A DNA stretch of 64,000 nt from the IMG/VR virus record IMGVR_UViG_3300022666_000111. One strand, 5' to 3'. The notes below the pieces were generated by a model. It saw only the letters and a list, made by a program, of their open reading frames with translations, did not search any database and had not been told where the DNA came from. The translations under genes and the position numbers were made by a program. Shown here piece after piece: positions 20,052 through 57,380 of the stretch. This DNA comes from a virus. Its lineage: Duplodnaviria > Caudoviricetes. The stretch's first letter is position 1. Each line of letters starts with the position of its first letter.

Positions 20052-20819
20052 ATGCGGGTAGCAGCTATCCAAATGCAGCCGGTCTTCAAAGACCATCCAG
20101 GAAACATCCGAAAGGCCATGCTGCTGGCCTCCAAGGCCGCCAAAGACGGCGCCAAGCTCATCGTTCTCCCCGAGCTATGCACGACGGGCTACTCCTTCAT
20201 GAGTGCCGAATCAGCTCGACACTATGCCGAGACCTTGAGTGACTTCGACCCCAGCAAGCGAATCCCTGACAGCGGGGCGTGCTCTTGCCCGAGCATGTAC
20301 GTCATGCACCGGGTAGCGGCATCGTTCGACACCTACGTAGCTTGGGGGCTCGTAGAGGCGGACCCTGGAACGGGGCACCTGTACAACGCTCAGGTCCTCA
20401 TGGCGCCGGATGGCTCCTGGGAAAGCTACCGCAAGGTCAACCTCTGGGGTAATGACTTCCTCTGGGCCAAGCCGGGGCGCGCTAACCCTCCGGTGGTCCC
20501 GACGCCTCATGGAAAGATCGGGCTCCTTGTTTGCCGCGACGTGCGGGACAAGAGCGACAAGCTCGACTCATTCTATGAGAAGGGTGATGCCGACATCGTT
20601 GCCTTCTCCGCCAATTGGGGCAAAGGGGGCTTCCCTGCGGTACACTGGATGGAGTTCGCCTCGGACAATGCCACAACGCTGGTCGTGGCCAATCGTTACG
20701 GGATCGAAGATAATAACGACTTCGGTCTTGGTGGAATTTGCATCATTCGCCCGGACGGCACGGTAAATTGCGACGGCCTTCTTTGGGGTGCCAACTGCAT
20801 TGTAGCAGGAGACCTGTGA
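20052..20819 (+). CDS. Carbon-nitrogen hydrolase (nitrilase superfamily)
   Basis: Glu-Lys-Cys triad: LPELCTTGY, YRKVNL, GLLVCRD. Confidence 0.9.
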   Translation: MRVAAIQMQPVFKDHPGNIRKAMLLASKAAKDGAKLIVLPELCTTGYSFMSAESARHYAETLSDFDPSKRIPDSGACSCPSMYVMHRVAASFDTYVAWGLVEADPGTGHLYNAQVLMAPDGSWESYRKVNLWGNDFLWAKPGRANPPVVPTPHGKIGLLVCRDVRDKSDKLDSFYEKGDADIVAFSANWGKGGFPAVHWMEFASDNATTLVVANRYGIEDNNDFGLGGICIIRPDGTVNCDGLLWGANCIVAGDL

Positions 20820-21829
20820 TGAAACATATCGCGAGAAACGTTGCCCGTCGTTACGCCAACGGACGGATCCTACCGGAGATGCTCAAGGCGCTCGATCAGC
20901 TCGATCAGCTTGACGAGAATCTCACGAAGCTCGAGACGACCTTCGACATGCACTTTGCGGCGGCAACCCCCGAGGTCAAGGGGCACATGGATTCGCTCGT
21001 CAAGGCCATCGAAGGGTTGAAGACGGCCAAGATGGTGCTTGACGGGCTCAACAAGCTCGTCGCAACGTTCCCCGAGGACAAGGGCGCGGCTAAGGCCAAG
21101 GTCGAGGCCGAACGTATGGTTGACCGCTTCGAGAAGCACATCGAGAAGACCAGGAAGATCGTCCGGACCCTTTCCGCCAAGGCGATGCCCAAGGCCCTCA
21201 AGGATCTTGGGGCCAAGATTGAAAAGATCATCAAGGCCAAGCTGGTGAACCCATCGGTGCTCGAGGTCCTCCCTTGGCAAGATACACAGACCCACACTGC
21301 ACCCTACTTGATCTTCTTCCGGATCCAGGATAAGTCGTTCCATAACGGGCGCGTAGAGGTACGCATCGAAGAAAACATCTCGTCAACGGATGGACCATCG
21401 TTGTACGATGGGTATAACATTACCCGAAATATCACGGCGGACAAAGCCGCTGAGGCATTCTTCGCGAAGCTGCGTGGGTGGGATGGCATCAAGGGCGGGG
21501 CTGAAGAGAAGACCCTCCGGAAGATGCGGTGCGTTGGGATTGAAGGCGCAATCAAGAGCATCACTAACTCGCTCGGTTGGATGACAGATCCTCCCACGGT
21601 TTCCGATGACTACCTCACGGTTGAGGGGTCCTACCGTGCTGGATCCTTGCCCAAGGAGGGTGCATACGAGCTAGGCGAGTATGCGTACGAGGAGTTGGTG
21701 AGGGCAGAGCGCGCCAAGTGTCAGAAGGCGGTAGATGCGAAACTCGCCCCCTACAAGGACGTCATCAAGAACACCGAGATCAGCTTCGGCGAGAAAAGCT
21801 GGGTCTACATCACCGTCCACCTGAAGTAA
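20819..21829 (+). CDS. Coiled-coil hypothetical protein with N-terminal IARNVARRY tag
   Basis: TGATG coupling to the nitrilase; shared peptide motif. Confidence 0.65.
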   Translation: MKHIARNVARRYANGRILPEMLKALDQLDQLDENLTKLETTFDMHFAAATPEVKGHMDSLVKAIEGLKTAKMVLDGLNKLVATFPEDKGAAKAKVEAERMVDRFEKHIEKTRKIVRTLSAKAMPKALKDLGAKIEKIIKAKLVNPSVLEVLPWQDTQTHTAPYLIFFRIQDKSFHNGRVEVRIEENISSTDGPSLYDGYNITRNITADKAAEAFFAKLRGWDGIKGGAEEKTLRKMRCVGIEGAIKSITNSLGWMTDPPTVSDDYLTVEGSYRAGSLPKEGAYELGEYAYEELVRAERAKCQKAVDAKLAPYKDVIKNTEISFGEKSWVYITVHLK

Positions 21830-21854
21830 GCACGTGCCCGGTGTAGATCCGGGC

Positions 21855-23153
21855 ATGACTACTACAACGCCCACCATCGAACGTTGCTCCTTCTGCAAGC
21901 GCCCTCGCAACGAGGTCAAGCAGCTCATTGCAGGCCCTGACGGCGCCTTCATCTGCAACAAATGCATCGCGGCGGCGGCTAAGGCCGTCGAATCCGCCGC
22001 CAAGGGGGCGACCCCCGAAGCCACCAAGGAAGAGCCTCTCCGCAAGCCCAAAGAGATCCGGGCCTACCTTGACGAACACATCATCGGGCAGGAAAAGGCC
22101 AAGGTCGACGTTTCTGTCGCCATCTACAATCACTTCAAGCGGCGCGTCACCTGTCAAAAGGGCATCCCCAACACGACCGGGGTGGAGATCCAGAAGTCCA
22201 ATATCCTCCTCATGGGACCCTCGGGGACGGGAAAGACGGAGATCGCCCGAACGATCGCGCGCCTCCTCAAGGTCCCCTTCTACGTCGCGGATGCAACCAG
22301 GCTCACGCAGGCGGGCTACGTTGGGGACGATGTCGAAAGCCTCCTCCAGGGGCTCCTGGCCGACGCGGACGGGGATGTTGAACGGGCGGAATGGGGCATC
22401 ATCTTCATCGACGAATTCGACAAGCTCGCCAGGAAGAGCGGGCGCGGGGCTTCGGGCTACCGTGACGTTTCCGGTGAGGGCGTGCAGCAGGCGCTTCTCA
22501 AGATGCTTGAGGGCGGCAAGGTGCAGGTCCCTCGGGGCATGAACGCCCGCGTCGTGAGCGCCAGCGGGCAGGCCGTCGATATGATTGACACGCGCAACGT
22601 CCTCTTCATCTGCGCGGGCTCCTTTGCGGGGATCGAGGAGACGGTCGGGCAGCGCCTCAACAAGGACGCCCGGGTGGGCTTCGGGACCGCCAAGAAGAAG
22701 ATCGCTCCGGACGAGGTCTATACGGCCATCACGGAGGACGATATCCTTGACTTCGGAATCATCCCGGAGCTGATCGGTCGTATCCCCATCCACACGACCA
22801 CGCTGCCTTTGTCCGAGGACGATATGGTGCGCGTCCTGACCGAGCCCAAGAATTCCCTGGTCAAGCAATACCAGGCCCTCTTCGCTATGGACAACGTCGA
22901 GCTATCGTTCGACGAGGCGGCGCTTCGGTCGATCGGGCGCAAGGCCAATGAGCGCACCACGGGCGCGAGGGCGCTGCGTAGTATCATGGAAGAGATCCTT
23001 CGGGCCTACGCCTACACGGTCCCCAGTGAGCCTGACGTGCGCGCCATCCACATAACGGAGATGGCCGTCAACGGCGGGGACGCAGTCATCATGCGCGGCG
23101 AGGCCCCGGTGGCCTCCGCAGAAGAGCCTCAGATCCGGCTCGCCAAGGGATGA
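21855..23153 (+). CDS. clpX: ClpX ATP-dependent unfoldase
   Basis: CSFC...CNKC Zn domain, KSNILLMGPSGTGKT, GYVG, IDEFDK, RDVSGEGVQQ, VGF docking loop, TGARALR. Confidence 0.95.
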   Translation: MTTTTPTIERCSFCKRPRNEVKQLIAGPDGAFICNKCIAAAAKAVESAAKGATPEATKEEPLRKPKEIRAYLDEHIIGQEKAKVDVSVAIYNHFKRRVTCQKGIPNTTGVEIQKSNILLMGPSGTGKTEIARTIARLLKVPFYVADATRLTQAGYVGDDVESLLQGLLADADGDVERAEWGIIFIDEFDKLARKSGRGASGYRDVSGEGVQQALLKMLEGGKVQVPRGMNARVVSASGQAVDMIDTRNVLFICAGSFAGIEETVGQRLNKDARVGFGTAKKKIAPDEVYTAITEDDILDFGIIPELIGRIPIHTTTLPLSEDDMVRVLTEPKNSLVKQYQALFAMDNVELSFDEAALRSIGRKANERTTGARALRSIMEEILRAYAYTVPSEPDVRAIHITEMAVNGGDAVIMRGEAPVASAEEPQIRLAKG

Positions 23154-23180
23154 GGATTGTTCTTTTCCTCCCACTAAGGT

Positions 23181-24379
23181 ATGCTCGTCACGTCCAGCTT
23201 TCAGGGTTCGGTCTACCTTCGGAGCGCACACGCCCTCGATGAGGGCGGCTTGAATGAAATCTACAACGCGAACTACGAGTTCGCGGATGGTGAGGTGAAG
23301 GGCTCTTCTCTTGTCCAAAACGTGGAAATGTACACGGACTACAAGAAGGGCATCGGCCGGGGTATCGTTTACGCCCTCAACCCTGACTACAACTACATCT
23401 ACAAGATCGAGCGACCCCTACGGATCTTCGAGAAGAAGCGCGAAGACTTCCTCTACGCGATCAAGCGAGGTATGGTCGACCTCGACCTCATTGCGAAGCA
23501 GCACCCCAAGCTGACGCAAGAGGCGGCCATTGAAGAGGTCCTCAAAGAGGTCCTTGGTGAGGGCGTCTACTACCTCCAGTACTTCAAGAAGGCCCCCTTC
23601 ATGAAGTACTATGACGGCGTTCAGGTCCACAAGACGGCTGACATGAAGTACTGGGGCAACGTGGGGATCTGGCTTTCGATCATCCAGACCGGCGCGGACC
23701 TGATCGACGGTAACGTCAAGCGGTTCGTCAAGGAGGCGCCGGGGACGGTCCCAGATATCCCTTCGGACATCGTAGAGGAGCTGGTTGACTACACGGCTAA
23801 GGCGGGCGGCCGTATTGGGACGCGTGCCAAGAAGTGGCTCCAAGAGAACATCAAGCCGCCTTACGGGTCCATCAAGGTCTACCGGGGCGTGAAGCTCGAC
23901 AGCTACGATGTCAAAGGGCTCACCGAAGATGCTCAGACTTACTTGGGGCTCTCCAAGCTCACGGACGTCCATAAGGGCGCCGTGGCGACGCTTAGCCGGG
24001 GCGAGCGTCGTCTTGGTCACAGACGCCCCAGATATCCCGAGAGTTCGCCAATTTGGGAGCCATGCACCTCCTCTTGCAAGCTGAGCTGAAGCCCAAGCAG
24101 ATCATCGTCGACCTCACCTTGCTCCCTATGGGCATCCGTACCAAGTTCAGGCACTTCAGCCAGAACGAGGTCATTGCCGCGCCGGGAAAGATCCCGGCGA
24201 AGATCATCTCCATAGGGGTTTCGGAGTACCTCCTGAAGCATCTGGAGACACCCACGCAGTATTCGGACCCTGCTCTCCAGAACTACGAGTGGGTTCCCCG
24301 CTACGGGTTCATCGAAAAGAAGGCCGATCTCGCGCGGAAGATCATGGCCCGTTATCTTGGGACTACAGATATGGTGTAG
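23181..24379 (+). pseudogene. ADP-ribosyltransferase-like gene split by a -1 frameshift near 23998-24001
   Basis: VYRG in the first ORF; SSWSQTPQISREFA and QNEVI in the -1 frame; one extra G in the GGGG run fuses them. Confidence 0.65.
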
Positions 24380-24387
24380 TAGTGAGC

Positions 24388-24759
24388 ATGGCAGCAACGT
24401 TTGAGCATCTTTCTTGCCCTCTTCCGCTACCTCCCCTCGATCATCTATCCGTTGCAGAGCTAACCGCGTTGCGTCAGGAGCTTCATAGGATAGGGCGCAC
24501 CGCCCGCAAGGAGGCGTCCAAGACCATCCAGAAGATCCCGGGCTTGAATAAGCTCTGGCTCAAGACGATCGCGGTCAAGACCGACGATGAGAATCGCCTG
24601 GCGATCCTTGAGGAGTTCAATCGCGAGCTGGTCAAGCATCCCGAGGCGTTCGTGAAGCACGCCTATGCCAACTCTCTCGTCATCATCGATACGGCCATCC
24701 ACGATGAGGCCATGAAACGCGCAGCTACGACCCCTGTGATGGTGACACGAAGACGTTGA
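24388..24759 (+). CDS. Hypothetical protein
   Basis: ATG 8 nt after GGTGTAG (24373-24379). Confidence 0.6.
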   Translation: MAATFEHLSCPLPLPPLDHLSVAELTALRQELHRIGRTARKEASKTIQKIPGLNKLWLKTIAVKTDDENRLAILEEFNRELVKHPEAFVKHAYANSLVIIDTAIHDEAMKRAATTPVMVTRRR

Positions 24760-24781
24760 TCCCTCGCTGACATCGGTGTAG
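24755..24781 (+). promoter_or_regulatory. Hybrid GTTGATC-N13-GGTGTAG element
   Basis: Links the two motif classes; ATG 8 nt downstream. Confidence 0.7.
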
Positions 24782-24789
24782 CTACCAGC

Positions 24790-25611
24790 ATGCTAAGCGG
24801 CAAAACAGAGGGGCTACCCTACTCGCTCTCACGTTGGACCGACGTTCCGGCGTCCAAGTGGGACTGGTTCAAGGCTCAATTGGCGCAAGGGCGCATGACG
24901 GCGTTCGACCCACGAACGGCCATCCCGGGGGAATGGAGCCTCCGGCAAGAGGACACCCAGGGGCTGATTCTTTGGACGAAGAACCCCACCAACCTCTTGA
25001 AGGACGCCGCGCTCCTCAAGGGCTACCCCCTGGTCGTGCATGTGACCTTGACGGGATGGGGCGAGGTTGAGAAAAACGCCCCCGACATTCACGAAGGCAT
25101 CCGGTTGCTCAAGGACACGGTCCGGACCTTTGGGGTGCATCAAGTCGTGTGGCGGTTCACGCCTATCCCGCAGCTCCCGACCCTTGAGATCCTCGATCGG
25201 TTCACTGAGATCGCTGAAGAGGTCGCCAAGGTGGGCGTTCGTGAGGTCTACACGGTCTTCTTGCAGCCGAATGACCGGATGCCTGAGACCCGGACGGTCC
25301 ACCGGCGCCACCTCACGATCCAAGCCATGGCGCGATCGGTGGAGTACCTACACATCCTGGTGCTTCATTGCAAGGATGACCAGACAACCCTCTCCAAGCC
25401 GATCGACCAGTACGAGTACAACCTCGATGTAGGCGTTTGTGAGGACGGGCGGCGGTTCGGGGCGCCTCCCACCATGGATTGCGGATGCTGCCTTGCCGTT
25501 GACCCCTTCACGATCAACGAGACGTGCGCCTTGGGGTGCAAGTACTGCTACGCGGCGGATAAGAGCCTCTCGGCGAAGAAGCGCAACACGACGCTCAGGG
25601 TGCTGCCTTGA
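24790..25611 (+). CDS. DUF1848-family radical-SAM-like protein
   Basis: SRWTDVPA, WTKNP, WRF.P, C-terminal CALGCKYCYA. Confidence 0.8.
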   Translation: MLSGKTEGLPYSLSRWTDVPASKWDWFKAQLAQGRMTAFDPRTAIPGEWSLRQEDTQGLILWTKNPTNLLKDAALLKGYPLVVHVTLTGWGEVEKNAPDIHEGIRLLKDTVRTFGVHQVVWRFTPIPQLPTLEILDRFTEIAEEVAKVGVREVYTVFLQPNDRMPETRTVHRRHLTIQAMARSVEYLHILVLHCKDDQTTLSKPIDQYEYNLDVGVCEDGRRFGAPPTMDCGCCLAVDPFTINETCALGCKYCYAADKSLSAKKRNTTLRVLP

Positions 25612-25994
25612 TTCACACGCATCCGTTTGCGGAGGATTGGCTTGCGCTCCAGGGCATACACATCCCCCCGGAGCCTGCCAAGGTCTCGCACTTCCTGAAT
25701 TTTGACGTGACGCTCTACGACTACCACGACCCCCGCCCTCTTACGGAGGTGGTTGAGGATCAGATCATGGTTTTGCTGGAGCGCTTCAAACCTGGAATGG
25801 ACACACGCCTTCAGGTGGTGACCACGTATGCGGACGGTTCGAGTTACACCCGCACCTTAACACATCTGTTCTTCAACATGCCCAGGTACGACCTTGTGCA
25901 TCGCGCGGTCACGTTATGCGACGACCGCGAGCGAGAGATTGCTGGGATCCAGTTGATACTTCACGACATGGAAGAAAGACAATGCCCGACCTAG
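25608..25994 (+). CDS. Hypothetical protein
   Basis: TTGA coupling. Confidence 0.45.
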   Translation: MIHTHPFAEDWLALQGIHIPPEPAKVSHFLNFDVTLYDYHDPRPLTEVVEDQIMVLLERFKPGMDTRLQVVTTYADGSSYTRTLTHLFFNMPRYDLVHRAVTLCDDREREIAGIQLILHDMEERQCPT

Positions 25995-26236
25995 AGGACT
26001 CACCTGACTTGACCGACGAAGAGGTTGCGGCGGCGGTAGACGCGACGGACGCTGAGCTTGGGAATCGCCTATTTGCCCTCAAGTGTCGGTGCGATAGGCT
26101 TCACGAGCGGAGGCACAATAGCCTTCGGCGTCGTCGCCCCTACCACTACGCCATTTTCGAGCTAAGCTGCCCTGTATGCGGTGACGCCCAAAAGGCTGTC
26201 TTCCGTTTGACCGATCCGAAATGGAGACTCACATGA
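25982..26236 (+). CDS. Small Zn-ribbon protein
   Basis: CxC...CPVC. Confidence 0.5.
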   Translation: MPDLEDSPDLTDEEVAAAVDATDAELGNRLFALKCRCDRLHERRHNSLRRRRPYHYAIFELSCPVCGDAQKAVFRLTDPKWRLT

Positions 26237-26598
26237 GCAAGTGCGACGACGGTTGTGACCAGACCCCGGTGACGTGCGAGACGCCCCGGACGACCTACTG
26301 CGATCGAGATCGCAAGAACAACGTCTGGATCGAGGGCGGTGATCCCGCGACCGGCGAGGGCGGTGTGTGCCTCTTGGACAACATGCACCGCGAGCAGGTC
26401 GTCTACATCCTTGAGCGGGACGAGATCGCCCGGCGCGACCTTGCTCGTGTGACGAGCGATCCTGAGCTTCAGGAGATGGCGCTTACGGTACCGCGCCTCG
26501 CGACCAAGGAAGAGGCGGACACGATCCAGGAGAAGGCCAACGCCAACACGATGCCCTTCTACACGGCCTTTGCGGGGCGGCCCCCCTTCGCCCAGTGA
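26233..26598 (+). CDS. Hypothetical protein
   Basis: SD GGAG, ATGA coupling. Confidence 0.55.
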   Translation: MSKCDDGCDQTPVTCETPRTTYCDRDRKNNVWIEGGDPATGEGGVCLLDNMHREQVVYILERDEIARRDLARVTSDPELQEMALTVPRLATKEEADTIQEKANANTMPFYTAFAGRPPFAQ

Positions 26599-28092: not shown

Positions 28093-28458
28093 ATGTCAGA
28101 CCGTAATGTAACGATCGACGCCGCCCGCAGGCTGATCAAGATCCGCATGCAGCAGGCGATTTGCCGTGAGAAACTCAAGGAGCTGGGAGGGACGGACCAT
28201 ATCTGGGAACCTATGCTGATGCTTGCAGACGGCTTCTACGACGAGGCCCTTAAGGATTGGAATGCCCATCTCAAGAGCGTCCCGATGCACATGCATGTCC
28301 GGCTTGCGCTCATCGTTGAGGCTATCTCCCAAGCAACCATTGAGGCGGGCTTCCCTTACAAGGACCACTGCGATGAAGCCTGGATCAAGCGGGTCATCGG
28401 TAACTTCCTGGCCACCTTTGACCCGATGGAGATGCTTGACGGTGTAGGGGACGCTTGA
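28093..28458 (+). CDS. Hypothetical protein
   Basis: SD GAGGA; GGTGTAG at 28050-28056. Confidence 0.55.
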   Translation: MSDRNVTIDAARRLIKIRMQQAICREKLKELGGTDHIWEPMLMLADGFYDEALKDWNAHLKSVPMHMHVRLALIVEAISQATIEAGFPYKDHCDEAWIKRVIGNFLATFDPMEMLDGVGDA

Positions 28459-28952
28459 TGAAGACCGGGGACCTCATAGATCTGGATGGCAAACGCTACC
28501 AAGTCGGTCAATTTCGACGTGACGTTAGGACCTTCATGGTTTACGACGTCACTGGAGTTGGGCGTGAGGTCCCAGACGACATTCCGCACAAGGTCGTGGC
28601 GCAACCGCCCTCCACGTGGCCCTTCATCACGTCGAAGGAGCATCCCAAACACGGGGCGGTAGCGTCCGTTCAGATCCCGTCCCGGCAGCGGGAGCTTACA
28701 CCTCTTGAGGATTGGGCGCCAAGTGAGCCCACCCGGGCAGGCGGCAGTATCTTCCTGAACCCTGCCTTGGGGCTACGCCTTGGGGATACCGTCAACGTCA
28801 CGCTCCGATCGGGAAAGATCGTCCGTGTGACCATACAGAGGTCCTTTGCGTCGGTTCCACAGCGGATCGAAAGAGCTGCGGCCAAACCCAAGGAGCCAAA
28901 GACTGCTTTTGACCATCTCCTAGAGGGAGATGACGATGAAGATACCCCTTGA
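28458..28952 (+). CDS. Hypothetical protein with KTAFDHLLEGDDD tail
   Basis: GGTGTAG at 28441-28447; shared acidic tail. Confidence 0.6.
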   Translation: MKTGDLIDLDGKRYQVGQFRRDVRTFMVYDVTGVGREVPDDIPHKVVAQPPSTWPFITSKEHPKHGAVASVQIPSRQRELTPLEDWAPSEPTRAGGSIFLNPALGLRLGDTVNVTLRSGKIVRVTIQRSFASVPQRIERAAAKPKEPKTAFDHLLEGDDDEDTP

Positions 28953-33507: not shown

Positions 33508-34134
33508 ATGCGCGACCTCATCGCCCGTGTTGCTGCCCGCTATGAATGTCAGGACCTCCTTCGGCAAATCCAAGGGGGTAAGCCTGCGATCCTCGTCCTG
33601 GTCACATCCTACCCTGGGATGGACATCCGCGTTTATCCCACAGAGGACCTCCCGCCCGAAAGGGTCGCGGCGCTTGACACCTACCTCCAGGGGATCTTCA
33701 CGGCCAAGAAGATCGAAGACTACGGCCCATGTAAGGACCCCGGGGGCGCCCCGCTCTCCTACATGGTTCAGTCAGCTTGGGAGCACATCAAAGACGCCCT
33801 CTTGGGAGTCTCTTGGGAGGGGGCACCTTTCAAGCTCCTGCTCAACCCACAGCCTTCGCTCTATCCGGATGCCGAAAGGCATCACTTGGTCATCGACTCC
33901 TACGGGGAAACCTTCGAGGCTATCTTGAGGGTTCTCAAAGCCATCAAGGCGCTAGGCGACGCGGGACATTCAACCTCTGTCGACATTGATGGGAAGGCCG
34001 TTGCTGGTGTTGACGGTGACGGCGCCGACCGCATTGAGGAGATTCTCGTGGACGGTAAATCTCTAGACAGGATCGCTTCCTGTGTGGTGGCCAAGTACAA
34101 GGCCAAGAAGAAGGTCAAGACCAAAACATCTTGA
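33508..34134 (+). CDS. Hypothetical protein with LIARVAARY tag (N-terminal part of an ancestral TopIB fusion)
   Basis: C-terminus RIASCVVAKYKAKKKVKTK duplicates the TopIB N-terminus. Confidence 0.65.
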   Translation: MRDLIARVAARYECQDLLRQIQGGKPAILVLVTSYPGMDIRVYPTEDLPPERVAALDTYLQGIFTAKKIEDYGPCKDPGGAPLSYMVQSAWEHIKDALLGVSWEGAPFKLLLNPQPSLYPDAERHHLVIDSYGETFEAILRVLKAIKALGDAGHSTSVDIDGKAVAGVDGDGADRIEEILVDGKSLDRIASCVVAKYKAKKKVKTKTS

Positions 34135-34165: not shown

Positions 34166-35029
34166 ATGTCTTGCACTGCTGAAGGTTGCCAGGAAGTCGC
34201 GCGTATTAGGGGCTTGTGTCTGAGGCATTACCACTTGGCGCGACGGTCAGGTACCCTGGACGTCAAACGCCGGGGTCGGGCTTGCCAGGTAGCAGGATGC
34301 CCTGAACCGCACTATGCTAAGGGGTACTGCTCGGGCCACTATGACGCTTGGAAGCGGTGGGGGGATCCCTTAAAACGGGTTCGCGGACACAGAGGTGACG
34401 GTCATGTTGACCGTTTTGGCTACAGGTGGGTTTCCATTGATGGGAGGCTTGTTTTGGAGCACCGTGTCATTATGGAGGCCACCCTCGGTAGACCGCTTCA
34501 ACCAGGAGAAAGGGTCACACACCTGAATGGGGACAGATCTGATAACCGGATCGAAAACCTGAGCATCGCAACCAAAGGGTACATTTCCAAAAAGGGTCAC
34601 CGGGTACTCAGTGTTAAGGGTAAGCAAGTCCTTGAGCATCGCCTGGTTATGGAACGGCATCTTGGTAGAAGCCTTGGTGCAAATGAGCAGGTGCTGCACA
34701 GGAACGGAGATCCCCTAGATAACCGTTTGGAGAATCTCCTGATCCGCAACACCACTCCCGGAAGCTCGGATGGCTACATCTATGTGTATGTGGCAGGGCG
34801 GGGTAATGTGGCGGAGCACCGCTGGCTTATGGAGGGGATTCTAGGACGACCTTTGACATCCGATGAGAGCGTCCACCACCGTAATGGTGACCGTCAAGAT
34901 AACAGAGCCGAAAACTTGGAGTTGTGGTCAAGGTACCAGCCCTCCGGACAACGTGTGGCGGATAAGCTAAAGTGGGCGCGGGAGATAATCTCTCGTTATG
35001 GACACCTTGAGCATGCTGCGTCTAGCTGA
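34166..35029 (+). mobile_element. Free-standing HNH homing endonuclease (three tandem HNH units)
   Basis: Three EHR..ME..LGR.L...E.VxHxNGD..DNR.ENL repeats; two N-terminal CxxxGC...GxCxxHY motifs. Confidence 0.9.
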
Positions 35030-35870
35030 ACGGGTTGTGGCCCGCTACCAGTCAAAACACCGCGTCAAAACGAAAGACGGGGACGAAATGGTGGTCTACG
35101 AGTATTCGGAGCGCCAGATCGCCAACCGAAACCGTAAGAAGGCGGAACGCCTCGAGAAGCTCAAGAAGAACATCGGCAACCTCCGCAAACGCGTCCAGCA
35201 GGACCTCAAGAGCAGTGACCCTGACACCATGCTATCCGCCCTGGCGGTAGCCCTCATCGACCACACGTATGAACGTGTAGGGAACGAGGAGTCTGCTGAT
35301 GATGGGCACTTCGGGGTCACCGGGTGGACCCGCAAGCACATTAGCTTCGGTCGTGGGAACGCGACGGTGAAGTACGTTGGCAAGTCCGGCGTGAAGCACA
35401 CCAAGAAGATCTCCGACGCCAGCATTCTCAAGGCCCTCAAGGATGTCTACGAGGCCCGGGAGGACGAGGACGAGAGCATCTTCACGCATGACTTGGGGAA
35501 GGTTGATGCCCGCAAGGTCAACGCCTACCTCAAGCAATTTGACGTGACAGCCAAGGACCTCCGAGGCTTCCACGCCAATCGAGAAATGCAAGAGCGCCTC
35601 AAGGAGATTCGCTCCAAGGGCAAGGCGCTATCCGAAGACAAGAAGGCCCGGGAGAAGCAGCTCAAGGCGGAATTCCTCAAAGCGCTTGAGGCAACGGCTG
35701 AGGCTGTCGGGCATGAGCCTGCGACCCTACGGTCGCAGTATTTGGTTCCGGGGCTCGAGGACGAGTACGTTAACAAGGGTACCGTAATGCCGTCCTTCAA
35801 AAAAGACGCTTCCAGTCTTGCAATACGCGTCATTCAACGCTATCTTGGGGCATGCTCAAGAAATGGGTGA
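35013..35870 (+). CDS. DNA topoisomerase IB (catalytic domain)
   Basis: Pentad in YERVGNE (R), VGKSG (K), AKDLRGFHAN (R), VGH (H), LRSQY (Y). Confidence 0.85.
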   Translation: MLRLAERVVARYQSKHRVKTKDGDEMVVYEYSERQIANRNRKKAERLEKLKKNIGNLRKRVQQDLKSSDPDTMLSALAVALIDHTYERVGNEESADDGHFGVTGWTRKHISFGRGNATVKYVGKSGVKHTKKISDASILKALKDVYEAREDEDESIFTHDLGKVDARKVNAYLKQFDVTAKDLRGFHANREMQERLKEIRSKGKALSEDKKAREKQLKAEFLKALEATAEAVGHEPATLRSQYLVPGLEDEYVNKGTVMPSFKKDASSLAIRVIQRYLGACSRNG

Positions 35871-36709
35871 TCTATTCCCTTGAAGATCCGCGCGGTGGTG
35901 GTGTACGATACGTAGGCATCACACACCAAGAACCCCAAAAGAGACTTCGAGGGCACTTGTCCAAAGCCCGTCGAGGTGCCCGTTCCCACCTGTTCAACTG
36001 GATCAGGAAGCTTCAAGCAGATGGCGTTGAGCCTATCTTGCGTGTACTTGAATCGGGCTCTGGGGAAGGGTGGGGTGCTGCCGAAACTCAATGGATTGCG
36101 TGGCATCGTACACTAGGCTGCGACCTCACAAACGCCACAGATGGTGGGGAGGGATGCCCAGGTCACAAGGTATCCCTGGAGGCTCGTCAGAAGATGCGTG
36201 AGGCTCGACTGGGGAAACCCTTGAGCCCTGAGCACAAGGCGAAGGTGGCTGCGGGTAATCGCGGCAAGAAAATGCGTCCCGAGTCCATTGCGTTGGGTGT
36301 TGAAAAGAGGTGTGGGTTCAAACATACCGCCGAAGCACGAGCGAAGATATCTGCTGCCAGAAAAGGGAAGGCGGGGTGGATCCCCACCCCTGATGTGTTA
36401 GCTAAACGTGCGCGAGCAATACAAGCGGCTATGTCGAACAAACGCGCGGCTGGGGGAACGTTTAGCCCTGATGCAGCAACTCGCGCCAAGATCAGCCAGG
36501 CCAACAAGGGTCTGAAGCGGAGCCCTGAAACCCGCGCCAGGATGTCAGCGGCGCGTAAGGCGGTTTGTGCTAAAGAACGAGAACGGACGGGGAAGCAATT
36601 GGGAGAGAGAGCCTCCCACAAGACATGCCCTATATGTGGGCTTCACATGCACAGACAAAGCAAGACTTGCAGAAGTTGTTTTGAAAAGGCTAAGACACAC
36701 TGTTGTTAG
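35852..36709 (+). mobile_element. GIY-YIG homing endonuclease with NUMOD3-like repeats
   Basis: VIYSL.DPR...RYVGIT, E..WI, LTN.TDGGEG, H..E.RAKIS repeats. Confidence 0.9.
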
Positions 36710-36738
36710 ATCGGGTCCCAGGGCTTGAGGAGGACTTC

Positions 36739-37152
36739 ATGGCGGACGGTAAGGTGGACGGCAATTTCGTCAAGTCAGCATCCTTGGAGCAGCGCGTGGT
36801 ACAGCGCTACCTAGCGGATCGACGGGCAGCGGCCAAGTTTGCCGTCGTCGATACCTACGCGGCGCTTGTCAAGAAGTGTCATGATGCGGAGTACACTGGG
36901 GTCCAAAAGATCCTGGCCCGGGTCAATCTGATCGCGAAGACCATTGGCTACACTCTTGACATGCAGCAATCCTACCTCGAGGCGCGGACCGGGAGCGAGA
37001 CGACCATTGAAGGTCGGTTGCGCTTCAAGGAGATCCCCGGGGCGAGGAATATCGTCCTGGGAGAATCCGCTATTCACACGGCTATGCGTGACCTCTTTGA
37101 CCTGTGGTCCTACCCACGTATGAACCAGGATGGGTTCGACATTAGTGTCTAA
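36739..37152 (+). CDS. Orphaned original C-terminal part of the TopIB fusion (LEQRVVQRYL tag)
   Basis: Preceded in frame by VPGLEEDF, matching TopIB VPGLEDEY; SD GAGGAGG before ATG 36739. Confidence 0.55.
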   Translation: MADGKVDGNFVKSASLEQRVVQRYLADRRAAAKFAVVDTYAALVKKCHDAEYTGVQKILARVNLIAKTIGYTLDMQQSYLEARTGSETTIEGRLRFKEIPGARNIVLGESAIHTAMRDLFDLWSYPRMNQDGFDISV

Positions 37153-50715: not shown

Positions 50716-51477
50716 ATGGAACAGCTATTCGCATGGATTCTCTCTTTCATGGTGGCCGTAGCGCCCCCGGGCCGGAACACTTACATCCCAGAAGCCAACG
50801 AAACCAAAGACGACGCAATGGCTCGCTATGAGTCGATCGCGCAAGACGTCGCACAAGTCATCTGGGACACCGAGGAAAAGCCCCTCTTCCAAGGCCCAAA
50901 CGGACGCGCACGAACAGCGGCCCTTATTCTTAGCGTGATGCTTCATGAGTCGGCATTCCGCAAGGACGTCGACACCGGGATCGGAAAGCTCGCCAGGGGC
51001 GACGGAGGTCGTTCTTGGTGTCTCATGCAGATGAACATCGGATCCGGTCGAACGATCTCGTGGAACAAAACCAAGTACCGCTTTGCCAAGGACGGGGACC
51101 CCGTCGACGAGATTCTCCCAAGCTACACAGGGCAGATGCTCGTCCAGGACCGGAAGAATTGCATCCGAGCCGGGCTGCACGGGATTCACGGGACGCGTTG
51201 CGGTGGGCTGCCGGTTCGAGAATGGCTGCGTGCGTACGCCAGCGGGTCTTGTGAGAAGGGCTCAACGGAGAGCCGCCGACGCATGGATGTAGCAATCGCG
51301 TGGTACAACAACCACCGACCGTCATTTACTGACGCGGACATCCTGACAGCAATGGCAACACCGCCTGCTCCAGCACCGGCGCCTACGGCCCCTATGGTCT
51401 TGGTTCTCCCCGAGGACCTTCGCCGGGCTGTTGCGGAGACACTTATCCCGAACCCTTGGAGAGGTGCTACCCCATGA
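50716..51477 (+). CDS. Lysozyme-fold / lytic transglycosylase-like protein
   Basis: N-terminal hydrophobic segment; VMLHESAF (catalytic ES), GDGGRSWCLMQ, LRAYASG. Confidence 0.6.
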   Translation: MEQLFAWILSFMVAVAPPGRNTYIPEANETKDDAMARYESIAQDVAQVIWDTEEKPLFQGPNGRARTAALILSVMLHESAFRKDVDTGIGKLARGDGGRSWCLMQMNIGSGRTISWNKTKYRFAKDGDPVDEILPSYTGQMLVQDRKNCIRAGLHGIHGTRCGGLPVREWLRAYASGSCEKGSTESRRRMDVAIAWYNNHRPSFTDADILTAMATPPAPAPAPTAPMVLVLPEDLRRAVAETLIPNPWRGATP

Positions 51478-51917
51478 AGATGACCAACGACGAGCTACAG
51501 GATCTGAAGGCGCGGTGCTTGACCGCGATCCATCGTGACTACACCATCGCGCATGTTGAGAGCCACATTGCCAACCTCAAGGTCGAAGCGGGTAATCCCG
51601 CGCTGCCTGCTGACCCCAGGATGGCCCTTGTAGCGCTCATTGACACGGCACTAGCCATCCGTGCCGGAAAGATTGCGCCCCCGGCAAAGCCCATCGTGGC
51701 GCCCGAGGTCAAGCCAGCCCCGAAGCCTGAGCCCGTCAAGGAGCCCGAGCCCGAGCCGGTTGTGGAAGAACCCAAGGCAGAAGAAGCACCTGTCGAGGAG
51801 CCCAAGGCAGAAGAAGCACCTGCGCCCGTGTTGACCTCGGGTGAGACGACAGCCGCCGATGACGCCCCCGCAGCCGAAGAGACCCCCAAGCACAAGAGGG
51901 GCGGCAAGCGCTCCTAG
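51474..51917 (+). CDS. Pro/Glu-rich hypothetical protein
   Basis: SD GAGGTG; EEPKAEEAP duplicated. Confidence 0.55.
   Translation: MKMTNDELQDLKARCLTAIHRDYTIAHVESHIANLKVEAGNPALPADPRMALVALIDTALAIRAGKIAPPAKPIVAPEVKPAPKPEPVKEPEPEPVVEEPKAEEAPVEEPKAEEAPAPVLTSGETTAADDAPAAEETPKHKRGGKRS
51771..51822 (+). repeat. Intragenic direct repeat (22 bp, 30-bp period)
   Basis: CCCAAGGCAGAAGAAGCACCTG at 51771 and 51801. Confidence 0.8.
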
Positions 51918-52615
51918 TCCTTCTTTTCCCCATAAACACCCACACCATGTAGTGCATTGAAGATCGGCTTTACGCTCAAACCCAGAGCTTGGGCTATACG
52001 CTTCAAAGACCATCCTTCAGATCGTAAGCGCTGACACACGGCCACCTGCTCGGTATCAAGGGCTCGCTTAGCTTGACCCATGCGTTTGCGGGTCGACTCG
52101 GTGTGGATAGCCCCGAGTCGCATGTAGCCAACTTGTGCGGCACGTTCCGGATGATCTTGATGCCAAGCTTTGAGAGCGTCTGAGATGGCTTGTTTTGTCT
52201 CAGAGCTTCTGGGAACACCTCGTATAGCGTCGTGTGCTTTTGACGTTAGGGTTAACCTTTCCTCGGCTGATAGCCCCTGTAGACGTGCCTTGTGTACAGC
52301 GGACATCCTGTTCGGAGAACCTCCAAAGCCCCCTGTTTGGCGGTTCTGTAGAAGAGGGCACGTCTTCATAGCCTCGGCTATCCTTAAGCGTTCGTCTGTA
52401 TAGGCGGCCTCTTCATTGTCCCACCACTGCAAGGGTTGTAGCTCATACGCTTGGAACCCCCCATTTTGAAGCATGTACTGTCGAAGGTGGTTGCAACGCT
52501 TGGCATTGCAGTGGTTAGCCCAGCGCTTTCGAGGCCGTGCCGTTTTTCCGATATAGATAGTTGCGTCTGTCTCAATGTGGCGAATACGATAAACGCAGAA
52601 CTTCTTGTGTGACAT
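51914..52615 (-). mobile_element. GIY-YIG homing endonuclease with NUMOD3-like and HTH domains
   Basis: CVYRI...IYIGKT..P.KRW.NH, E...I, N...GG.G; C-terminal GWSLKRIAQALGLS. Confidence 0.85.
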
Positions 52616-52622
52616 GCTTGGC

Positions 52623-53333
52623 ATGAGCATTGAACTCCCAGATAAACTAACACCGCTCACAAAAGTTGATCTCATCGAGGCGCTTTGGATGGGGCATCTG
52701 GCATACTTCGGCGCTCCTCCCTCTAAAGAGTGTCTCTGGATTGTTGCGGCACAGGTCATTTTGGAAACGGGCCTCAAATACTGTCATAACTATAATCTAG
52801 GAAATGTTAAGTCGAAGGACGGGGACGGCTTTGACTACCAATTCTTCGGATGCGGTGAAGAGGTCTCCCTCGCGACCGCCAATGCTTGGAAGGCCAAAGA
52901 CCCGAGCCTCGTCAAGATCAAGCGAATCTACCAGGTGAACGGAAAAGACCGGGCATCGGTCTGGGTTGACCCGCCGCATTGGGTGAGCCGGTTCCGAGCC
53001 TTTCACACAGCGGAGGAGGGCGCCCTTGACCACGTAGCGCTTCTCGCCCGGCGCTTCCCCTATGCGCTTGAAGCCGCCAAGCGTAAGGACATCCGGGGGT
53101 ACGCCCATGCCCTGAAGCAGGCGGGCTACTACACGGCGGATGAGGGGCAGTACACGGCAACGATCGTGGGGAGCTACGTGATCGCCGAGAAGGTCCCCGT
53201 GGACTATGACGCCCTCCCCGTCTTGACGGACGCCCAAGGCGAGCAGCTCATGAACCTCGTCGCACGGTCCATCCAAGCCAGTGTGGATGACTACCTCCAA
53301 GAATGCCGTGAGGACGAGCCCGATACGGTGTAG
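52623..53333 (+). CDS. GH73 (FlgJ/glucosaminidase-like) peptidoglycan hydrolase
   Basis: AQVILETG, NYNLGNVK, FRAF, LKQAGYYTA. Confidence 0.75.
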   Translation: MSIELPDKLTPLTKVDLIEALWMGHLAYFGAPPSKECLWIVAAQVILETGLKYCHNYNLGNVKSKDGDGFDYQFFGCGEEVSLATANAWKAKDPSLVKIKRIYQVNGKDRASVWVDPPHWVSRFRAFHTAEEGALDHVALLARRFPYALEAAKRKDIRGYAHALKQAGYYTADEGQYTATIVGSYVIAEKVPVDYDALPVLTDAQGEQLMNLVARSIQASVDDYLQECREDEPDTV

Positions 53334-53342
53334 TCCCAAGGC

Positions 53343-53636
53343 ATGTGGCTCAAATACCGACACAAGTTTTCCAGCGGTTCAGGCGGGGAGTGGTCGTGGA
53401 AGATCCTCTCCTTCGACGACACCGTTCCGAGCAAGGACATCCTCAAGGACACCCTCACGGAGATTCGGCAGGAGTATGAGTGGTCTGAGCAATACCGTGG
53501 GGTCGAGCACGAGGTCGTGAGCGTTCCGCCGCAAGAGGTCATTCTGATGAAGATCGGCGAGACACGGAGCCGGATCCAGGCTTTGGAGAACTTTTCACGG
53601 TATCTCCAAAGCCTCGTGGAGCCTACGGCTTCTTGA
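53343..53636 (+). CDS. Hypothetical protein
   Basis: ATG 9 nt after GGTGTAG (53327-53333). Confidence 0.55.
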   Translation: MWLKYRHKFSSGSGGEWSWKILSFDDTVPSKDILKDTLTEIRQEYEWSEQYRGVEHEVVSVPPQEVILMKIGETRSRIQALENFSRYLQSLVEPTAS

Positions 53637-54000
53637 CTTCAACGCGGTCTTCGCGGTCATCAATGGCCGCGAAGTGCTTGTTTGGATGGTTGCCCTCTTC
53701 GAATTCCAAGAGGGCTAGGTTGGCGACGTCAACCAAAAACTCCACGTTCCCCGTCTCAGCATAGCGGTCAACGCGGGCCTTGATGGCCTTGAGGAGGTCG
53801 TACTTAGGCTTCCCGGGGGAGTTGAGCCTGCCGTAACGGAGCGCCCCCATAACGAGACGGTTCCGCATGAGCTTCTCGAAGCGTGGGCTCCATTCGGTTT
53901 TCCACAGGTCCTCCGAGTAAGCGACGCTATTCTCGGTAAGCTCCGGGAGCCCGGCCGCCCAACGCCAAAGGTTCTTGATGAAAAAGGCGCGATCCATCAT
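53623..54000 (-). CDS. Conserved phage hypothetical protein
   Basis: MRNRL.MGALRYG, TGN.EFLVDVAN.A..EF. Confidence 0.65.
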   Translation of the reverse strand: MMDRAFFIKNLWRWAAGLPELTENSVAYSEDLWKTEWSPRFEKLMRNRLVMGALRYGRLNSPGKPKYDLLKAIKARVDRYAETGNVEFLVDVANLALLEFEEGNHPNKHFAAIDDREDRVEVKKP

Positions 54001-55709
54001 AGCTGGTGTCCCCATTCGGAATCATCCGGTTGACCAGGATCCTCGAGGTAGCCCTCGGGGATCCTCCCATTCTCTACGAGCTTTCCCATGAGCTTGCGGG
54101 TCCGGTCAAGGGTAGCCTCATCCGGGATGCCTGCCTTGCGGGGCCGGGGGAGGATGCTCATAAGCCAGAAGGCTTCAACCGGCTTGAGCTGCCCCGGTGT
54201 GACCTTGAAGTAGTGCTTGGAAGCCGGGCCGATCCCGTAGAGGTCCGGGCCGTATTCGACGACGTTGAGGTATAGCTCGATGATCTTGTCCTTGAGGTAG
54301 CAAGACTCGATCGCCTGGGCCAAGAAGAACTCCTGCGCCTTACGCCCCAAGGTCTTATCGCGACGAAGCCAGAGGTTCTTCGCGAGCTGCATGGTGATCG
54401 TTGAGCCGCCTCGGTGGAAGCGCCCGAGCTTGAGGTTGTCCAGGAGGGAGTTACGGTAAGCGCCGATGTCAACGCCTCTGTGTGCGACGTAGCCGGGGTC
54501 CTCCATGGTGATGGCCGCGTTGATGAGCCCCTCGGGAATCGCCTCAAGGGGGACCCAATCGGCGGAGCCTGGGCCGGACGTGCGGTCTACGAGGTCGTTC
54601 TTGGAGGAGTAGACCTTGTAGGTGAACGGCTTGGCAAGCGCCTTGAGCTTGGCCGCGTCACACTTCGCGCGACAGGATGTGTTGACATGTAGGGAAGGTT
54701 TGTCCCCATAACCAACGCGGAAGTCCACGTCTCCGGTGAACGTGATGCCTTCAAGAGGCTCACGAAGCCCCACGGGGAGGCTGGCGACCCAAGCCGAGCA
54801 TGCGCCCTTGCCATCGATCGTCTTGGCGTCAGGAATCCATGAGGCGTCTGCGAAGCCCTCAAGGTTGGCCGTGATGACTTTGCGGTTGGTGATCGTCAGT
54901 ACCACCATCTTGTCGAAGACCACGGGAACAGCGTTCAGCCACTCGTGCTGGAGCACGGCGCCTCCGATTTGGACCTCAATGGGCTCGCCGTAACGCACGA
55001 CGACCTTCTCGAGGCGTTGCCCCATGGCGATGACGCTTTGAGCCATCGCCTTCCTCCCGTCCTTGGAAATCATCGCCTTCTCAACAGCGATCTCAGGACC
55101 TCCTTCGGGCTTGATGGTGACCTTGGCGACGGTGCCAAGGTCGTCCTTGAGGTTCAGGGCGGCGCCTTGTAGGGACCAGGACGTTGTGGGGTATGTGTGA
55201 ATCGGCTGGAGGTACTTCCCAGAAGCCTCAGTGAGGGTGATGTCGTCCTTGGCCTTTCGGACGCCCTTGAAGGTCGCCTCGAAGTCTGGGTTGGTGGCCT
55301 CGCCGGTTTCGGCGGTGATGGTCCCCTGGTCATCAAGGGCAGCGTTGTGCAGCACGGCCTTGAGGCTTCCCTTGAAGACCGTGACCGTGAGCCCCGAGGC
55401 TGTGACCTTACGCTCGGAGGGGTTTGTGGGCTTGCTATCGCCCAAGGTGACGGCTGCCCAGCCTCCTTGGATTTCCACCCGGCCTCCCCAGCTTACGCGC
55501 ACGTTTGGCAACGACGCCGTGAGGTTGGGGCGGTTGACGTGGAGGCTCAGACGAGAGTACCCCAAGCGTGGGCTCACGTCACCAACGGTGACGCCAGGGT
55601 AGTTCTTCTCGACGTGCCATCGGATGGCCATAGGGGTCGCCGCGTAGAAGCCGGTCCCGAGGGCAAGCACCGAGATCGCGACCAGGGCTGTTTTATGCCG
55701 AAAGGTCAT
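53997..55709 (-). CDS. Biosynthetic peptidoglycan glycosyltransferase (GT51, MtgA-like) with long N-terminal region
   Basis: N-terminal TM; ED..Y..H.G, GGSTITMQLAKNL, RKAQE, K..IIE.YLN..EYG, LP.P. Confidence 0.9.
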   Translation of the reverse strand: MTFRHKTALVAISVLALGTGFYAATPMAIRWHVEKNYPGVTVGDVSPRLGYSRLSLHVNRPNLTASLPNVRVSWGGRVEIQGGWAAVTLGDSKPTNPSERKVTASGLTVTVFKGSLKAVLHNAALDDQGTITAETGEATNPDFEATFKGVRKAKDDITLTEASGKYLQPIHTYPTTSWSLQGAALNLKDDLGTVAKVTIKPEGGPEIAVEKAMISKDGRKAMAQSVIAMGQRLEKVVVRYGEPIEVQIGGAVLQHEWLNAVPVVFDKMVVLTITNRKVITANLEGFADASWIPDAKTIDGKGACSAWVASLPVGLREPLEGITFTGDVDFRVGYGDKPSLHVNTSCRAKCDAAKLKALAKPFTYKVYSSKNDLVDRTSGPGSADWVPLEAIPEGLINAAITMEDPGYVAHRGVDIGAYRNSLLDNLKLGRFHRGGSTITMQLAKNLWLRRDKTLGRKAQEFFLAQAIESCYLKDKIIELYLNVVEYGPDLYGIGPASKHYFKVTPGQLKPVEAFWLMSILPRPRKAGIPDEATLDRTRKLMGKLVENGRIPEGYLEDPGQPDDSEWGHQL

Positions 55710-56230
55710 TCTTGTTCCTCATCAGCTATGCGATCGTACCAGGTCGAATCTGAATCCTGGGACGGAGGTTGCACTATGGTGGGGTTTGGATCGACATGCG
55801 GTTGGGGTTGGATGAGGATCTCATCCATATCGTGACCATGGACCGCGTTCGTGAGCATGTTGACTTGGCGGGCAAGACGATCGATCCGACCAAGCATACG
55901 AGCATTAAGCACTTCTAAGGGGACTCCGTTTTTGATAGCTTTTACCTGGTCCTCAAGGCGCGCTAGCCGAATTGCTGTCTCACGTTTCCATTCAGCGTCA
56001 TCCGCGCGGGTTTGGTGGCGGTTAACCACACGTGCCAGCAGGTCGGTAGCTACGACAACCCCTCCAAAAACCCACACGAGGTGCCAGAACTTGACGCTGA
56101 AGCCTACAAAGTGTGCCGTGACGCCGTAGGCCGTCAGTAGGACGACGCCTGAGCAGAGCGCGCACAGTATGATCCTGAGACGGCGAAGGATGACCTTATC
56201 GTCAACGGGGGAGCCAGGTGAGTATCCCAT
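55706..56230 (-). CDS. Two-TM membrane protein with STWYDRIADEE tail
   Basis: ATG 9 nt after GGTGTAG (56240-56246). Confidence 0.6.
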   Translation of the reverse strand: MGYSPGSPVDDKVILRRLRIILCALCSGVVLLTAYGVTAHFVGFSVKFWHLVWVFGGVVVATDLLARVVNRHQTRADDAEWKRETAIRLARLEDQVKAIKNGVPLEVLNARMLGRIDRLARQVNMLTNAVHGHDMDEILIQPQPHVDPNPTIVQPPSQDSDSTWYDRIADEEQE

Positions 56231-56295
56231 GGACCCCAACTACACCGATGGCTCCTTGGGGTCCAGCTAGCCTTTCGATAACGATGTCATTGGTG

Positions 56296-56814
56296 ATGAC
56301 GACCTCTGGCATCGTGACCAAGCCAAACCCTCAAGACCTGTGGGAGCCGACCAACGTTGGCCTATGGGAGAGGGTCAACGACTTGGCTCAAGGCAGGATC
56401 AAGGAACTCAAAGGCAAGGACACCACGTATCACGCCCCAAGGGATGGCGCGGGGTTCAAGGAGTTTCCCTCACCACGTGCCAATGGGTGGTGCGTGAGGA
56501 TCTACAACCTTGCCGGGGGACGTTGGCGCAAAAAGGGTGAGACGCGAACCTTCCTTCTCACGGGGAACATGGTTGAGAAGGTCGTTGAGCGGCACCAAAC
56601 CAAGCTGGCGAAGATGCTCGGAGAGGACATTCGTCGCAGCATGGCCCGCTATCAAGAAGGGCCGAGCCGCGAATGGCACCAGTGTAACGGATGCTCCTTA
56701 TGGGTTGCCACCGAACCTCGCATTGTCACGGCGGCGCAGCCTGGCATCTGCCTTCGCTACCAATTCAGAACAATCGATAAGGGGTGGTGCCCCACACATC
56801 ACACGATGGAGTAA
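56296..56814 (+). CDS. Hypothetical protein (FPSPRANGW motif, C-terminal CxxC...C...C)
   Basis: Start uncertain (56284 or 56296); contains MVEKVVERH variant tag. Confidence 0.5.
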   Translation: MTTSGIVTKPNPQDLWEPTNVGLWERVNDLAQGRIKELKGKDTTYHAPRDGAGFKEFPSPRANGWCVRIYNLAGGRWRKKGETRTFLLTGNMVEKVVERHQTKLAKMLGEDIRRSMARYQEGPSREWHQCNGCSLWVATEPRIVTAAQPGICLRYQFRTIDKGWCPTHHTME

Positions 56815-56819
56815 CAACC

Positions 56820-57380
56820 ATGGCTATGATCGGCCTGCGTATGCCTGCCGAGACAGGTAGGCTGCTTTCAGAGATTTCCGTCGAAGGGGAGGCGGTTGAT
56901 TTCGGCCACGCCCACGTGACGGTCGTCTACCTTGGTGATGACGTCCCTCTCCCGGCTGTCTTGAAGGCCGTGGAGGTCTGCTATGACGTGGCGCAACGAA
57001 TGCGTCCGATCAAGTGCAGCACGCGTCACACGTTCTGCTTCCCTCCATCGGATGAGGGAAAGCATCCAATCATCTGCCCGATTGATTCCCCAGACCTACA
57101 TGTCCTCCATGCAGGGATCACCGCAGGGCTTGACGCTGCGGGCGTCGAGTACAGCAAGAAGTGGCCGGAGTATAGGCCGCACACGACGTTGGCCTATGCC
57201 GACGCGCCTTACCCCGTGATCGACTTCGATCCGATCGAATGGACGGCTTTCGAGCTGACCGTATGGGGTGGGGATCATCGGGATTCGCGGATAGTCATCG
57301 CGATCCCGTTCTACTTCAAAAGTGACGCCAAGTTGGCCGCCAGGGTAGCCGCCCGGTGGCTTGGGCAAAACGCAGGCTAA
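56820..57380 (+). CDS. 2H phosphoesterase (LigT/Acb1-like)
   Basis: HVTVVYLG and YRPHTTLAY HxT motifs; C-terminal LAARVAARWL tag. Confidence 0.85.
   Translation: MAMIGLRMPAETGRLLSEISVEGEAVDFGHAHVTVVYLGDDVPLPAVLKAVEVCYDVAQRMRPIKCSTRHTFCFPPSDEGKHPIICPIDSPDLHVLHAGITAGLDAAGVEYSKKWPEYRPHTTLAYADAPYPVIDFDPIEWTAFELTVWGGDHRDSRIVIAIPFYFKSDAKLAARVAARWLGQNAG

Follow-up and report, generated by a model that had tools for sequence, protein, structure and literature searches.

A shared terminal peptide in the window

The window analysed here is the whole 64,000-nucleotide stretch of DNA from IMG/VR record IMGVR_UViG_3300022666_000111, a virus of the Caudoviricetes, and the element in question is a peptide of about 12 residues, with the consensus [M]-[DAS]-x-L-A-x-R-V-A-A-R-[YWF]-[LK], which recurs on otherwise unrelated proteins and is called the tag in what follows. 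A preliminary description of this DNA had listed nine such strings and read them as a packaging signal. All nine are present in + strand reading frames; six of the positions had been given correctly, while the other three were 9 nt off, the true ones being 20828, 33517 and 35022. A profile built from the tags and then iterated over related loci scores six sites in the window at 20-26 bits (24329, 57333, 35022, 35817, 33517 and 36784), and the next hit, at 7.5 bits, lies in a non-coding frame. Since this profile was seeded partly on sites in the window, independent support comes from pattern and shuffle tests. The loose pattern [LIMV]..[RK][VI]..[RK][YW] has six matches in the + coding frames and one in all other frames together. 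When the roughly 100 proteins of the window were shuffled by residue, the mean number of matches was 0.41 and the maximum 2, and none of 300 shuffles reached six; the motif is thus clearly commoner than in shuffled proteins, one of the points on which the preliminary description had made its proposal depend.

All genes named in this section lie on the + strand. The 2H phosphoesterase gene (56826..57380), which encodes a LigT/Acb1-like protein of 184 aa, ends with the highest-scoring copy, LAARVAARWL (57333-57362; 26.4 bits), five residues before the stop. Its identity rests on a PF13563 match and on both H-x-T motifs (H30-x-T32 and H119-x-T121), which are invariant among homologues; the match to PF23474 (Acb1) is weak and scores below the family cut-off, which is too little to establish an anti-CBASS role. 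In this 2H family the C-terminal tag is retained down to about 40% identity. The type IB topoisomerase (TopIB) module (34998..35870; PF01028, E = 1e-28) carries a tag at either end, LAERVVARY at 35022-35048 (20.9 bits) and LAIRVIQRYL at 35817-35846 (21.9 bits). The tyrosine of the tag was considered as the catalytic tyrosine of the topoisomerase and ruled out; the catalytic residue is that of LRSQY, at about residue 248, which aligns to SKRAY of poxvirus TopIB and lies upstream of the C-terminal tag. Further downstream, a 149-aa protein (36703..37152) has LEQRVVQRYL 27 aa from its start (36784-36813; 21.8 bits). Its first 37 residues repeat the end of TopIB, tag included, and it probably once formed the continuing part of a TopIB fusion protein.

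A gene resembling ADP-ribosyltransferases (ARTs; 23181..24379) bears LARKIMARYL (24329-24358; 23.1 bits) six residues before its stop. The preliminary description was right to call it an ART, and its type is R-S-E, though the gene is split across two frames: YRG is read in frame 0, whereas frame -1 holds SSWS and QNE, and the shift occurs at a G-run (23997-24002). The switch must fall at AGC CGG GGC (23994-24005), where one added G would yield ...ATLSRGRASSWSQ.... The break could be an assembly error in the G-run, a real frameshift or programmed slippage; an IMG/VR search with the tail of the ART returned a single weak match, so that the frameshift could not be compared with relatives.

Two tagged proteins are of unassigned function. 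One, of 208 aa (33508..34134), has the N-terminal tag MRDLIARVAARY (33517-33543; 22.4 bits) and a decayed C-terminal copy, IASCVVAKY (34072-34098), which receives no profile score; searches for protein families and in the ESM Atlas gave no lead. The other, of 336 aa (20819..21829), likewise has no lead from Pfam, PHROG or the ESM Atlas. It begins with the variant MKHIARNVARRY (20828-20854), which is below profile scoring, yet sits in the exact N-terminal register M-x-x-[LI]-A-x-R-V-A-A-R-Y, apart from an Asn in place of Arg. The ninth string, MVEKVVERH (56569..56595), is not supported as a tag: it has no profile score and lies internally, at residue 117 of 198 in a doubtful open reading frame (ORF). 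The statement that the strings always stand at a terminus or domain boundary therefore holds for the supported sites and fails for this one.

The copies that share residues mostly differ in their codons; the C-terminal tags of the 2H and TopIB proteins, for example, have five identical residues and not one identical codon. Conservation hence lies in the peptide and not in the DNA. Judged from the sequences, the scrambled synonymous codons and the retention in the 2H family indicate that the tag is selected as a peptide. A DNA repeat, a recombination joint or an endonuclease target was considered as the origin of the similarity and ruled out on the same codon differences and on the low nucleotide identity (57%) of the duplicated segments described below.

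In AlphaFold2 (AF2) models, the core of the 2H enzyme (pLDDT >90) is followed by a short linker and a separate C-terminal helix (residues 167-183; pLDDT 59-70). Both tags of TopIB are modelled as helical at pLDDT <50, against 70-93 for its core. Both predictions suit a helix that has been added on to each fold and lies outside it. The earlier proposal of a basic amphipathic helix common to unrelated enzymes is supported.

Two homing endonuclease genes have been inserted beside these tags. Upstream of TopIB, an HNH gene (34166..35029; PF13392, E = 9e-32) occupies the junction tag, and the 26 residues duplicated on its two sides, tag included, are 50% identical in aa and 57% in nt; IASCVVAKY is the decayed upstream copy of that duplication. 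A GIY-YIG/NUMOD3 gene (35852..36709; PF01541 and PF07460) follows the TopIB core and is flanked by a 34-aa duplication, again including the tag (53% aa and 57% nt identity). Four of the nine listed sites are thus two pairs generated by endonuclease insertion, and they provide no independent evidence of selection in the window genome. The earlier argument that a tag on both duplicated segments points to selection is accordingly weak, as the cassettes explain the duplicates and one of the four copies has decayed. From sequence comparison, the duplications fit homing-endonuclease cassettes that carried in the donor's diverged gene end. In split-gene cassettes such as the mobE-split nrdA of phage Aeh1, free-standing HNH or GIY-YIG genes likewise lie inside a coding region and leave pieces that are separate but complete; unlike there, the insertions described here are at or next to the tag, duplicate 26-34 residues containing it, and leave both pieces tagged.

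The tag in the giant fusion proteins of relatives

Megablast and blastn searches of the window against deposited phages found no close relative, and tblastn with the giant proteins described here gave the unannotated LR745208.1 as the only close match. A search of IMG/VR with TopIB found five loci, on contigs as long as 618 kb. The consensus of the tag is constant in these relatives, although the identity of their TopIB is no more than 56-66%. TopIB is here one module of ORFs of 2,020, about 2,020 and 3,125 aa, which also carry peptidase C45/AAT Ntn-hydrolase, DUF5661 and GNAT domains; one of them, P0003 (locus L004), has AAT/C45, DUF5661, TopIB and GNAT. Tags are found at the junctions and termini of all four proteins P0001-P0004, and a 707-aa neighbour reads tag, 2H, tag, CCA/poly(A) polymerase. 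An equivalent tag starts the giant ORF in loci L004 and L002, but ends the preceding 2H gene in L003. Gene boundaries fall on either side of the helix, which is how a tag may come to be N- or C-terminal. In L004 (6416-15790; P0003 residues ~1125-1205), DUF5661 has been inserted within a tag, with LIERVAARSL before it and HGARYKSKKKV after it; the same tag is single and uninterrupted in L003 and L002.

The breadth of the tag was assessed in a search for longer proteins, which yielded 573 fusions with TopIB, 509-2,000 aa in length; the partner domains include HD, LPD1, DUF5661, poly(A) polymerase, SOD, PAP2, 2H, GNAT, NUDIX, carbonic anhydrase and RNA ligase. Among the 120 of these fusions that were listed, the profile finds 68 tags in 52 proteins, compared with 0-1 in five shuffles and none in the reversed sequences. 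Twenty-six of the 68 are within 25 aa of the N-terminus and eight within 25 aa of the C-terminus, and in the ten proteins with Pfam coordinates all tags lie outside the domain envelopes. The protein P0185, for instance, joins DUF5661, TopIB, 2H, SOD and PAP2. LPD1 (PF18796) is found in P0173 and is also among the precomputed domains of several TopIB fusions; a Pfam scan of the proteins of the window did not find it. Counts of degenerate DNA patterns in four related genomes (G001-G004) were uninformative, as they did not rise above the reversed control.

For the polyvalent proteins known from phages and conjugative elements, packaging into the head and injection have been predicted (Iyer, Burroughs, Anand, de Souza and Aravind 2017, PMC5512222), and LPD1 together with the domain syntax places the present fusions with them. 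The relatives share with those proteins the many unrelated effector-type domains (ART, GNAT, 2H, peptidase), LPD1 and the neighbourhood of terminase and portal genes. Unlike them, the modules of the window are mostly single tagged genes, their neighbours are replication genes, and TopIB is a core module; a shared junction or terminal helix is not described in that work. The tag borders enzyme modules in a large clade of huge phages, with hundreds of tag-bearing relatives. In many of these, TopIB, 2H, CCA/poly(A) polymerase, GNAT, NUDIX, SOD, PAP2, HD, peptidase C45, DUF5661 and LPD1 are joined in polyvalent proteins as long as ~3,100 aa, while in the window phage the corresponding modules are mostly separate genes, each with its own tag, so that it has the dispersed form and not the polyvalent protein. 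It is close to certain that the tag is an autonomous helix, placed at junctions or termini in a family of polyvalent proteins that in the window is dispersed over single genes.

In the closest relative, the 406-kb genome G001, at least eight unrelated ORFs begin with the tag (e.g. MSRIASRVAQRYL, MNPIALRVMTRFL and MDKLALRVAQR), among them a DRAT-like ART and a DnaJ-like protein. Its TopIB gene (locus L001, 9809-10774) encodes two tag-like N-terminal helices separated by an insert of ~45 residues (KGEFCVRSPNNKDWNGGCYPSKGEAEKRLSEVEYFKH) and has no C-terminal tag. The TopIB locus is adjoined by a gene for a volactin-family actin (L001, 1854-2861; PF25216, E = 3e-72), and nearby lies a gene (4642-9117) for a 1,491-aa protein in which a tail-sheath domain is confined to the last 360 residues.

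The giant proteins have shared elements besides the tag. P0003 contains a second repeat in three copies (residues ~80-120, ~520-560 and ~1910-1950), F-x-x-x-V-x-x-x-x-F-x-N/H-P-x-T-G-N-x-V-x-F-x-S-L-x-x-x-E-Q-x-K-I-x-x-x-W, and G001 (locus L009) has a related HP-x-A-D/P-K-N-H string after a tag. P0001, P0002 and P0003 also have in common a C-terminal stretch in which a tag-like RVAQxWL is followed by WLAHVRSFHPDDPxRPxVVLDxA; this could be a separate anchoring or processing element.

Possible functions of the tag

The reading that we favour, to which we would give a probability of about one half, is that the tag is a portable docking helix that loads these enzymes into the prohead. The helix would serve as an address that some conserved part of the assembling head recognises; the tagged enzymes would be brought into the prohead and would then enter the host along with the DNA. 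The genomic setting in the relatives lends the cargo idea some support, as TopIB and 2H modules belong there to giant polyvalent proteins whose genes have the portal on one side and the head-maturation protease on the other. At loci L003 and L004, the genes for the terminase large subunit and the portal are followed by tagged small proteins (2H or 2H-CCA), then the giant polyvalent ORF and the gene for the head-maturation protease; in genome G004 the next genes encode an acidic scaffold-like protein of 524 aa (22% Asp+Glu), a protein of 219 aa and a major capsid protein (MCP) of the HK97 type, 291 aa long. The MCP (L015, 4131-5006, in G004; L013, 1474-2397, in G001) has more than 2,000 homologues, and among the best 120 the identity is at least 90%, against 56-66% for the TopIB modules of the same phages; a reader as conserved as the tag is therefore plausible and exists in principle. 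A single co-folding job with the G004 MCP and the tagged N-terminus of P0004 scored 0.03 against a mark of 0.32, which is evidence neither way. The N-terminal arm of the MCP (AVKQKLISEYIK) was considered as a tag-like sequence and dropped, as the profile gives it no support. A LAGLIDADG/HNH-type homing endonuclease gene (L015, 5110-6084) lies directly downstream of the MCP gene in G004.

Several observations weigh against such loading. The profile finds no tag in the protease, the scaffold-like protein or the MCP, and no site complementary to the tag was identified. SOD, carbonic anhydrase, CCA enzyme and the DnaJ-like protein are not obvious injected effectors. The tagged genes of the window sit among genes for a helicase, a DnaB-like protein, DNA polymerase, thymidylate synthase and DHH proteins, and those of G001 are dispersed over the genome; the head-module context hence holds for part of the clade only. 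Moreover, the megablast, blastn and tblastn searches found no cultured relative among deposited sequences. Bacillus phage G has no match to either the profile or a strict pattern, and so offers no experimental anchor.

The more ambitious version of this proposal is a universal, orientation-independent loading code of a very widespread clade of huge phages, in which a tag at either end of a protein or between modules would be recognised by one highly conserved head component and would lead to injection with the DNA. We regard this version as somewhat less likely than not. If true, it would give these phages a customisable injected toolkit of dozens of enzymes (topoisomerase, ARTs, cyclic-nucleotide or RNA-end phosphoesterases, CCA enzyme, SOD), and genes could enter or quit the injected set by gain or loss of 12 codons.

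The tag might instead be a signal for polyprotein processing, that is, chiefly a recognition element for either the embedded C45/Ntn-hydrolase or the protease of head maturation, which would separate the polyvalent proteins into their enzymes, with the terminal tags of single genes as propeptides or remnants. The placement of tags exactly between modules, the peptidase C45/AAT domain within the giant ORFs and the head-maturation protease encoded nearby all agree with this, and the capsid-targeting sequence of T4 is established to join targeting with cleavage. The preliminary description had also pointed to K-x-A/S upstream of the tag and suggested cutting by a prohead protease. The four C-side tags of the window are indeed preceded by K-x-A/S, more fully F-x-K-x-A-[SK], but this is not conserved in the wider family: in 67 unique tag contexts the flanks contain no conserved [KR]-x-A-[SG] or Glu-containing motif, nor any other conserved pattern resembling a cleavage site. 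The suggested cleavage at the tag is thus unsupported. Furthermore, the part that is conserved shows helical periodicity and is predicted to be helical, and single-domain proteins retain tags at their very ends, where a cut would free only the tag. A search for PF03420, the T4 prohead protease family, in the relatives gave no match, but the controls were equally silent. We consider processing unlikely; it is compatible with docking and does not exclude it. The tag could also bind a hub unrelated to the capsid, such as a nucleic acid (DNA or RNA), a factory for replication or transcription, the volactin filament, or the acidic tails of the form D-x-F-x-x-L-x-E-D-D-L-F that other proteins of the window genome carry. 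Such a role would suit the dispersal of tagged genes among non-structural genes in the window and in G001, the basic character of the tag, which on TopIB leads into a Lys-rich stretch, the volactin gene next to TopIB in G001, and the presence of acidic tails in the window. The concentration of tagged genes between portal and protease in two relatives speaks against it, as does the LPD1 of the tag-bearing family, which fits a polyvalent architecture; we think a hub of this kind unlikely, slightly more so than processing.

A functionless relic would be the seam left by module shuffling, a recombination joint, or the starts of once-separate genes, and the last of these would account for a frequent Met at position -6, which is present in 7 of 42 internal copies (17%) against a background of 1.9%. 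Modules do insert at tags, as DUF5661 does in L004 and the two homing endonucleases do in the window. This explanation has nevertheless to contend with residues strongly conserved under scrambled codons, with the C-terminal retention across the 2H family to 40% identity, with a consensus that is identical in phages whose modules have diverged to 56% identity, and with a DNA identity too low for a recombination site; we judge it very unlikely. Finally, the proteome is rich in Arg and Ala, and a GC content of 59% favours the codons of both, so that an artefact of chance or composition might be suspected. With no shuffle among 300 reaching the observed count, 68 tags in the fusions against 0-1 in shuffled and none in reversed sequences, and one match only in the five non-coding frames, chance is refuted as an explanation and may be set aside.

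Comparison with known systems, and further motifs

By analogy, the function proposed for the tag would resemble that of the T4 capsid-targeting sequence, the C-terminal helices of scaffold proteins and the cargo peptides of encapsulins. The T4 sequence, found on the internal proteins IPI-III and on Alt, is a short peptide common to unrelated proteins, one of which is an ADP-ribosyltransferase, and it directs them into the prohead. It is strictly an N-terminal leader of ~10 residues that is removed by the gp21 protease at L/I-x-E, whereas the tag of this clade is also found at C-termini and internally, is not similar in sequence, and has no conserved Glu cleavage motif in the 67 contexts. Scaffold C-terminal helices (P22, 80alpha/SaPI1) and encapsulin cargo-loading peptides dock inside an HK97-fold shell, and the encapsulin peptides function at either terminus. 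Like the tag, these are short terminal peptides, with another consensus; docking of the tag to the HK97-type MCP of the clade would be a putative counterpart. Capsid-targeting peptides and polyvalent proteins are known as such. The literature searched contained neither the tag motif nor its use at N-termini, C-termini and junctions alike.

Little is known, beyond T4 and phiKZ-like phages, of how huge phages choose the proteins that travel in their capsids. Were a tag of 12 residues to work at either end, the choice of cargo could be tested directly, the sequences of hundreds of uncultured huge phages could be used to predict their injected proteomes, and engineered phage capsids could gain a compact cargo-loading handle. 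Because proteins fuse and split at the tag and homing endonucleases insert there, such a tag would also account for the way in which polyvalent proteins are put together and dismantled in evolution.

Other shared motifs were noted in the window. A second terminal motif, opposite in charge to the basic tag, is an acidic-aromatic C-terminal tail on three unrelated proteins, encoded at 28455-28952 (+), 62727-63149 (-) and 63138-63848 (+), with the sequences KTAFDHLLEGDDDEDTP, KTVFDHLIEDSDDDPV and YRDVWRHLEDDDLF. Among DNA motifs, GGTGTAG occurs 39 times in the whole window against 4.85 expected, mostly immediately upstream of starts, and GTTGATC 25 times against 9.0 expected. It had been stated that no tagged gene is directly headed by either box, and this holds; one copy of GGTGTAG overlaps the stop codon of the ART gene (24373-24379).

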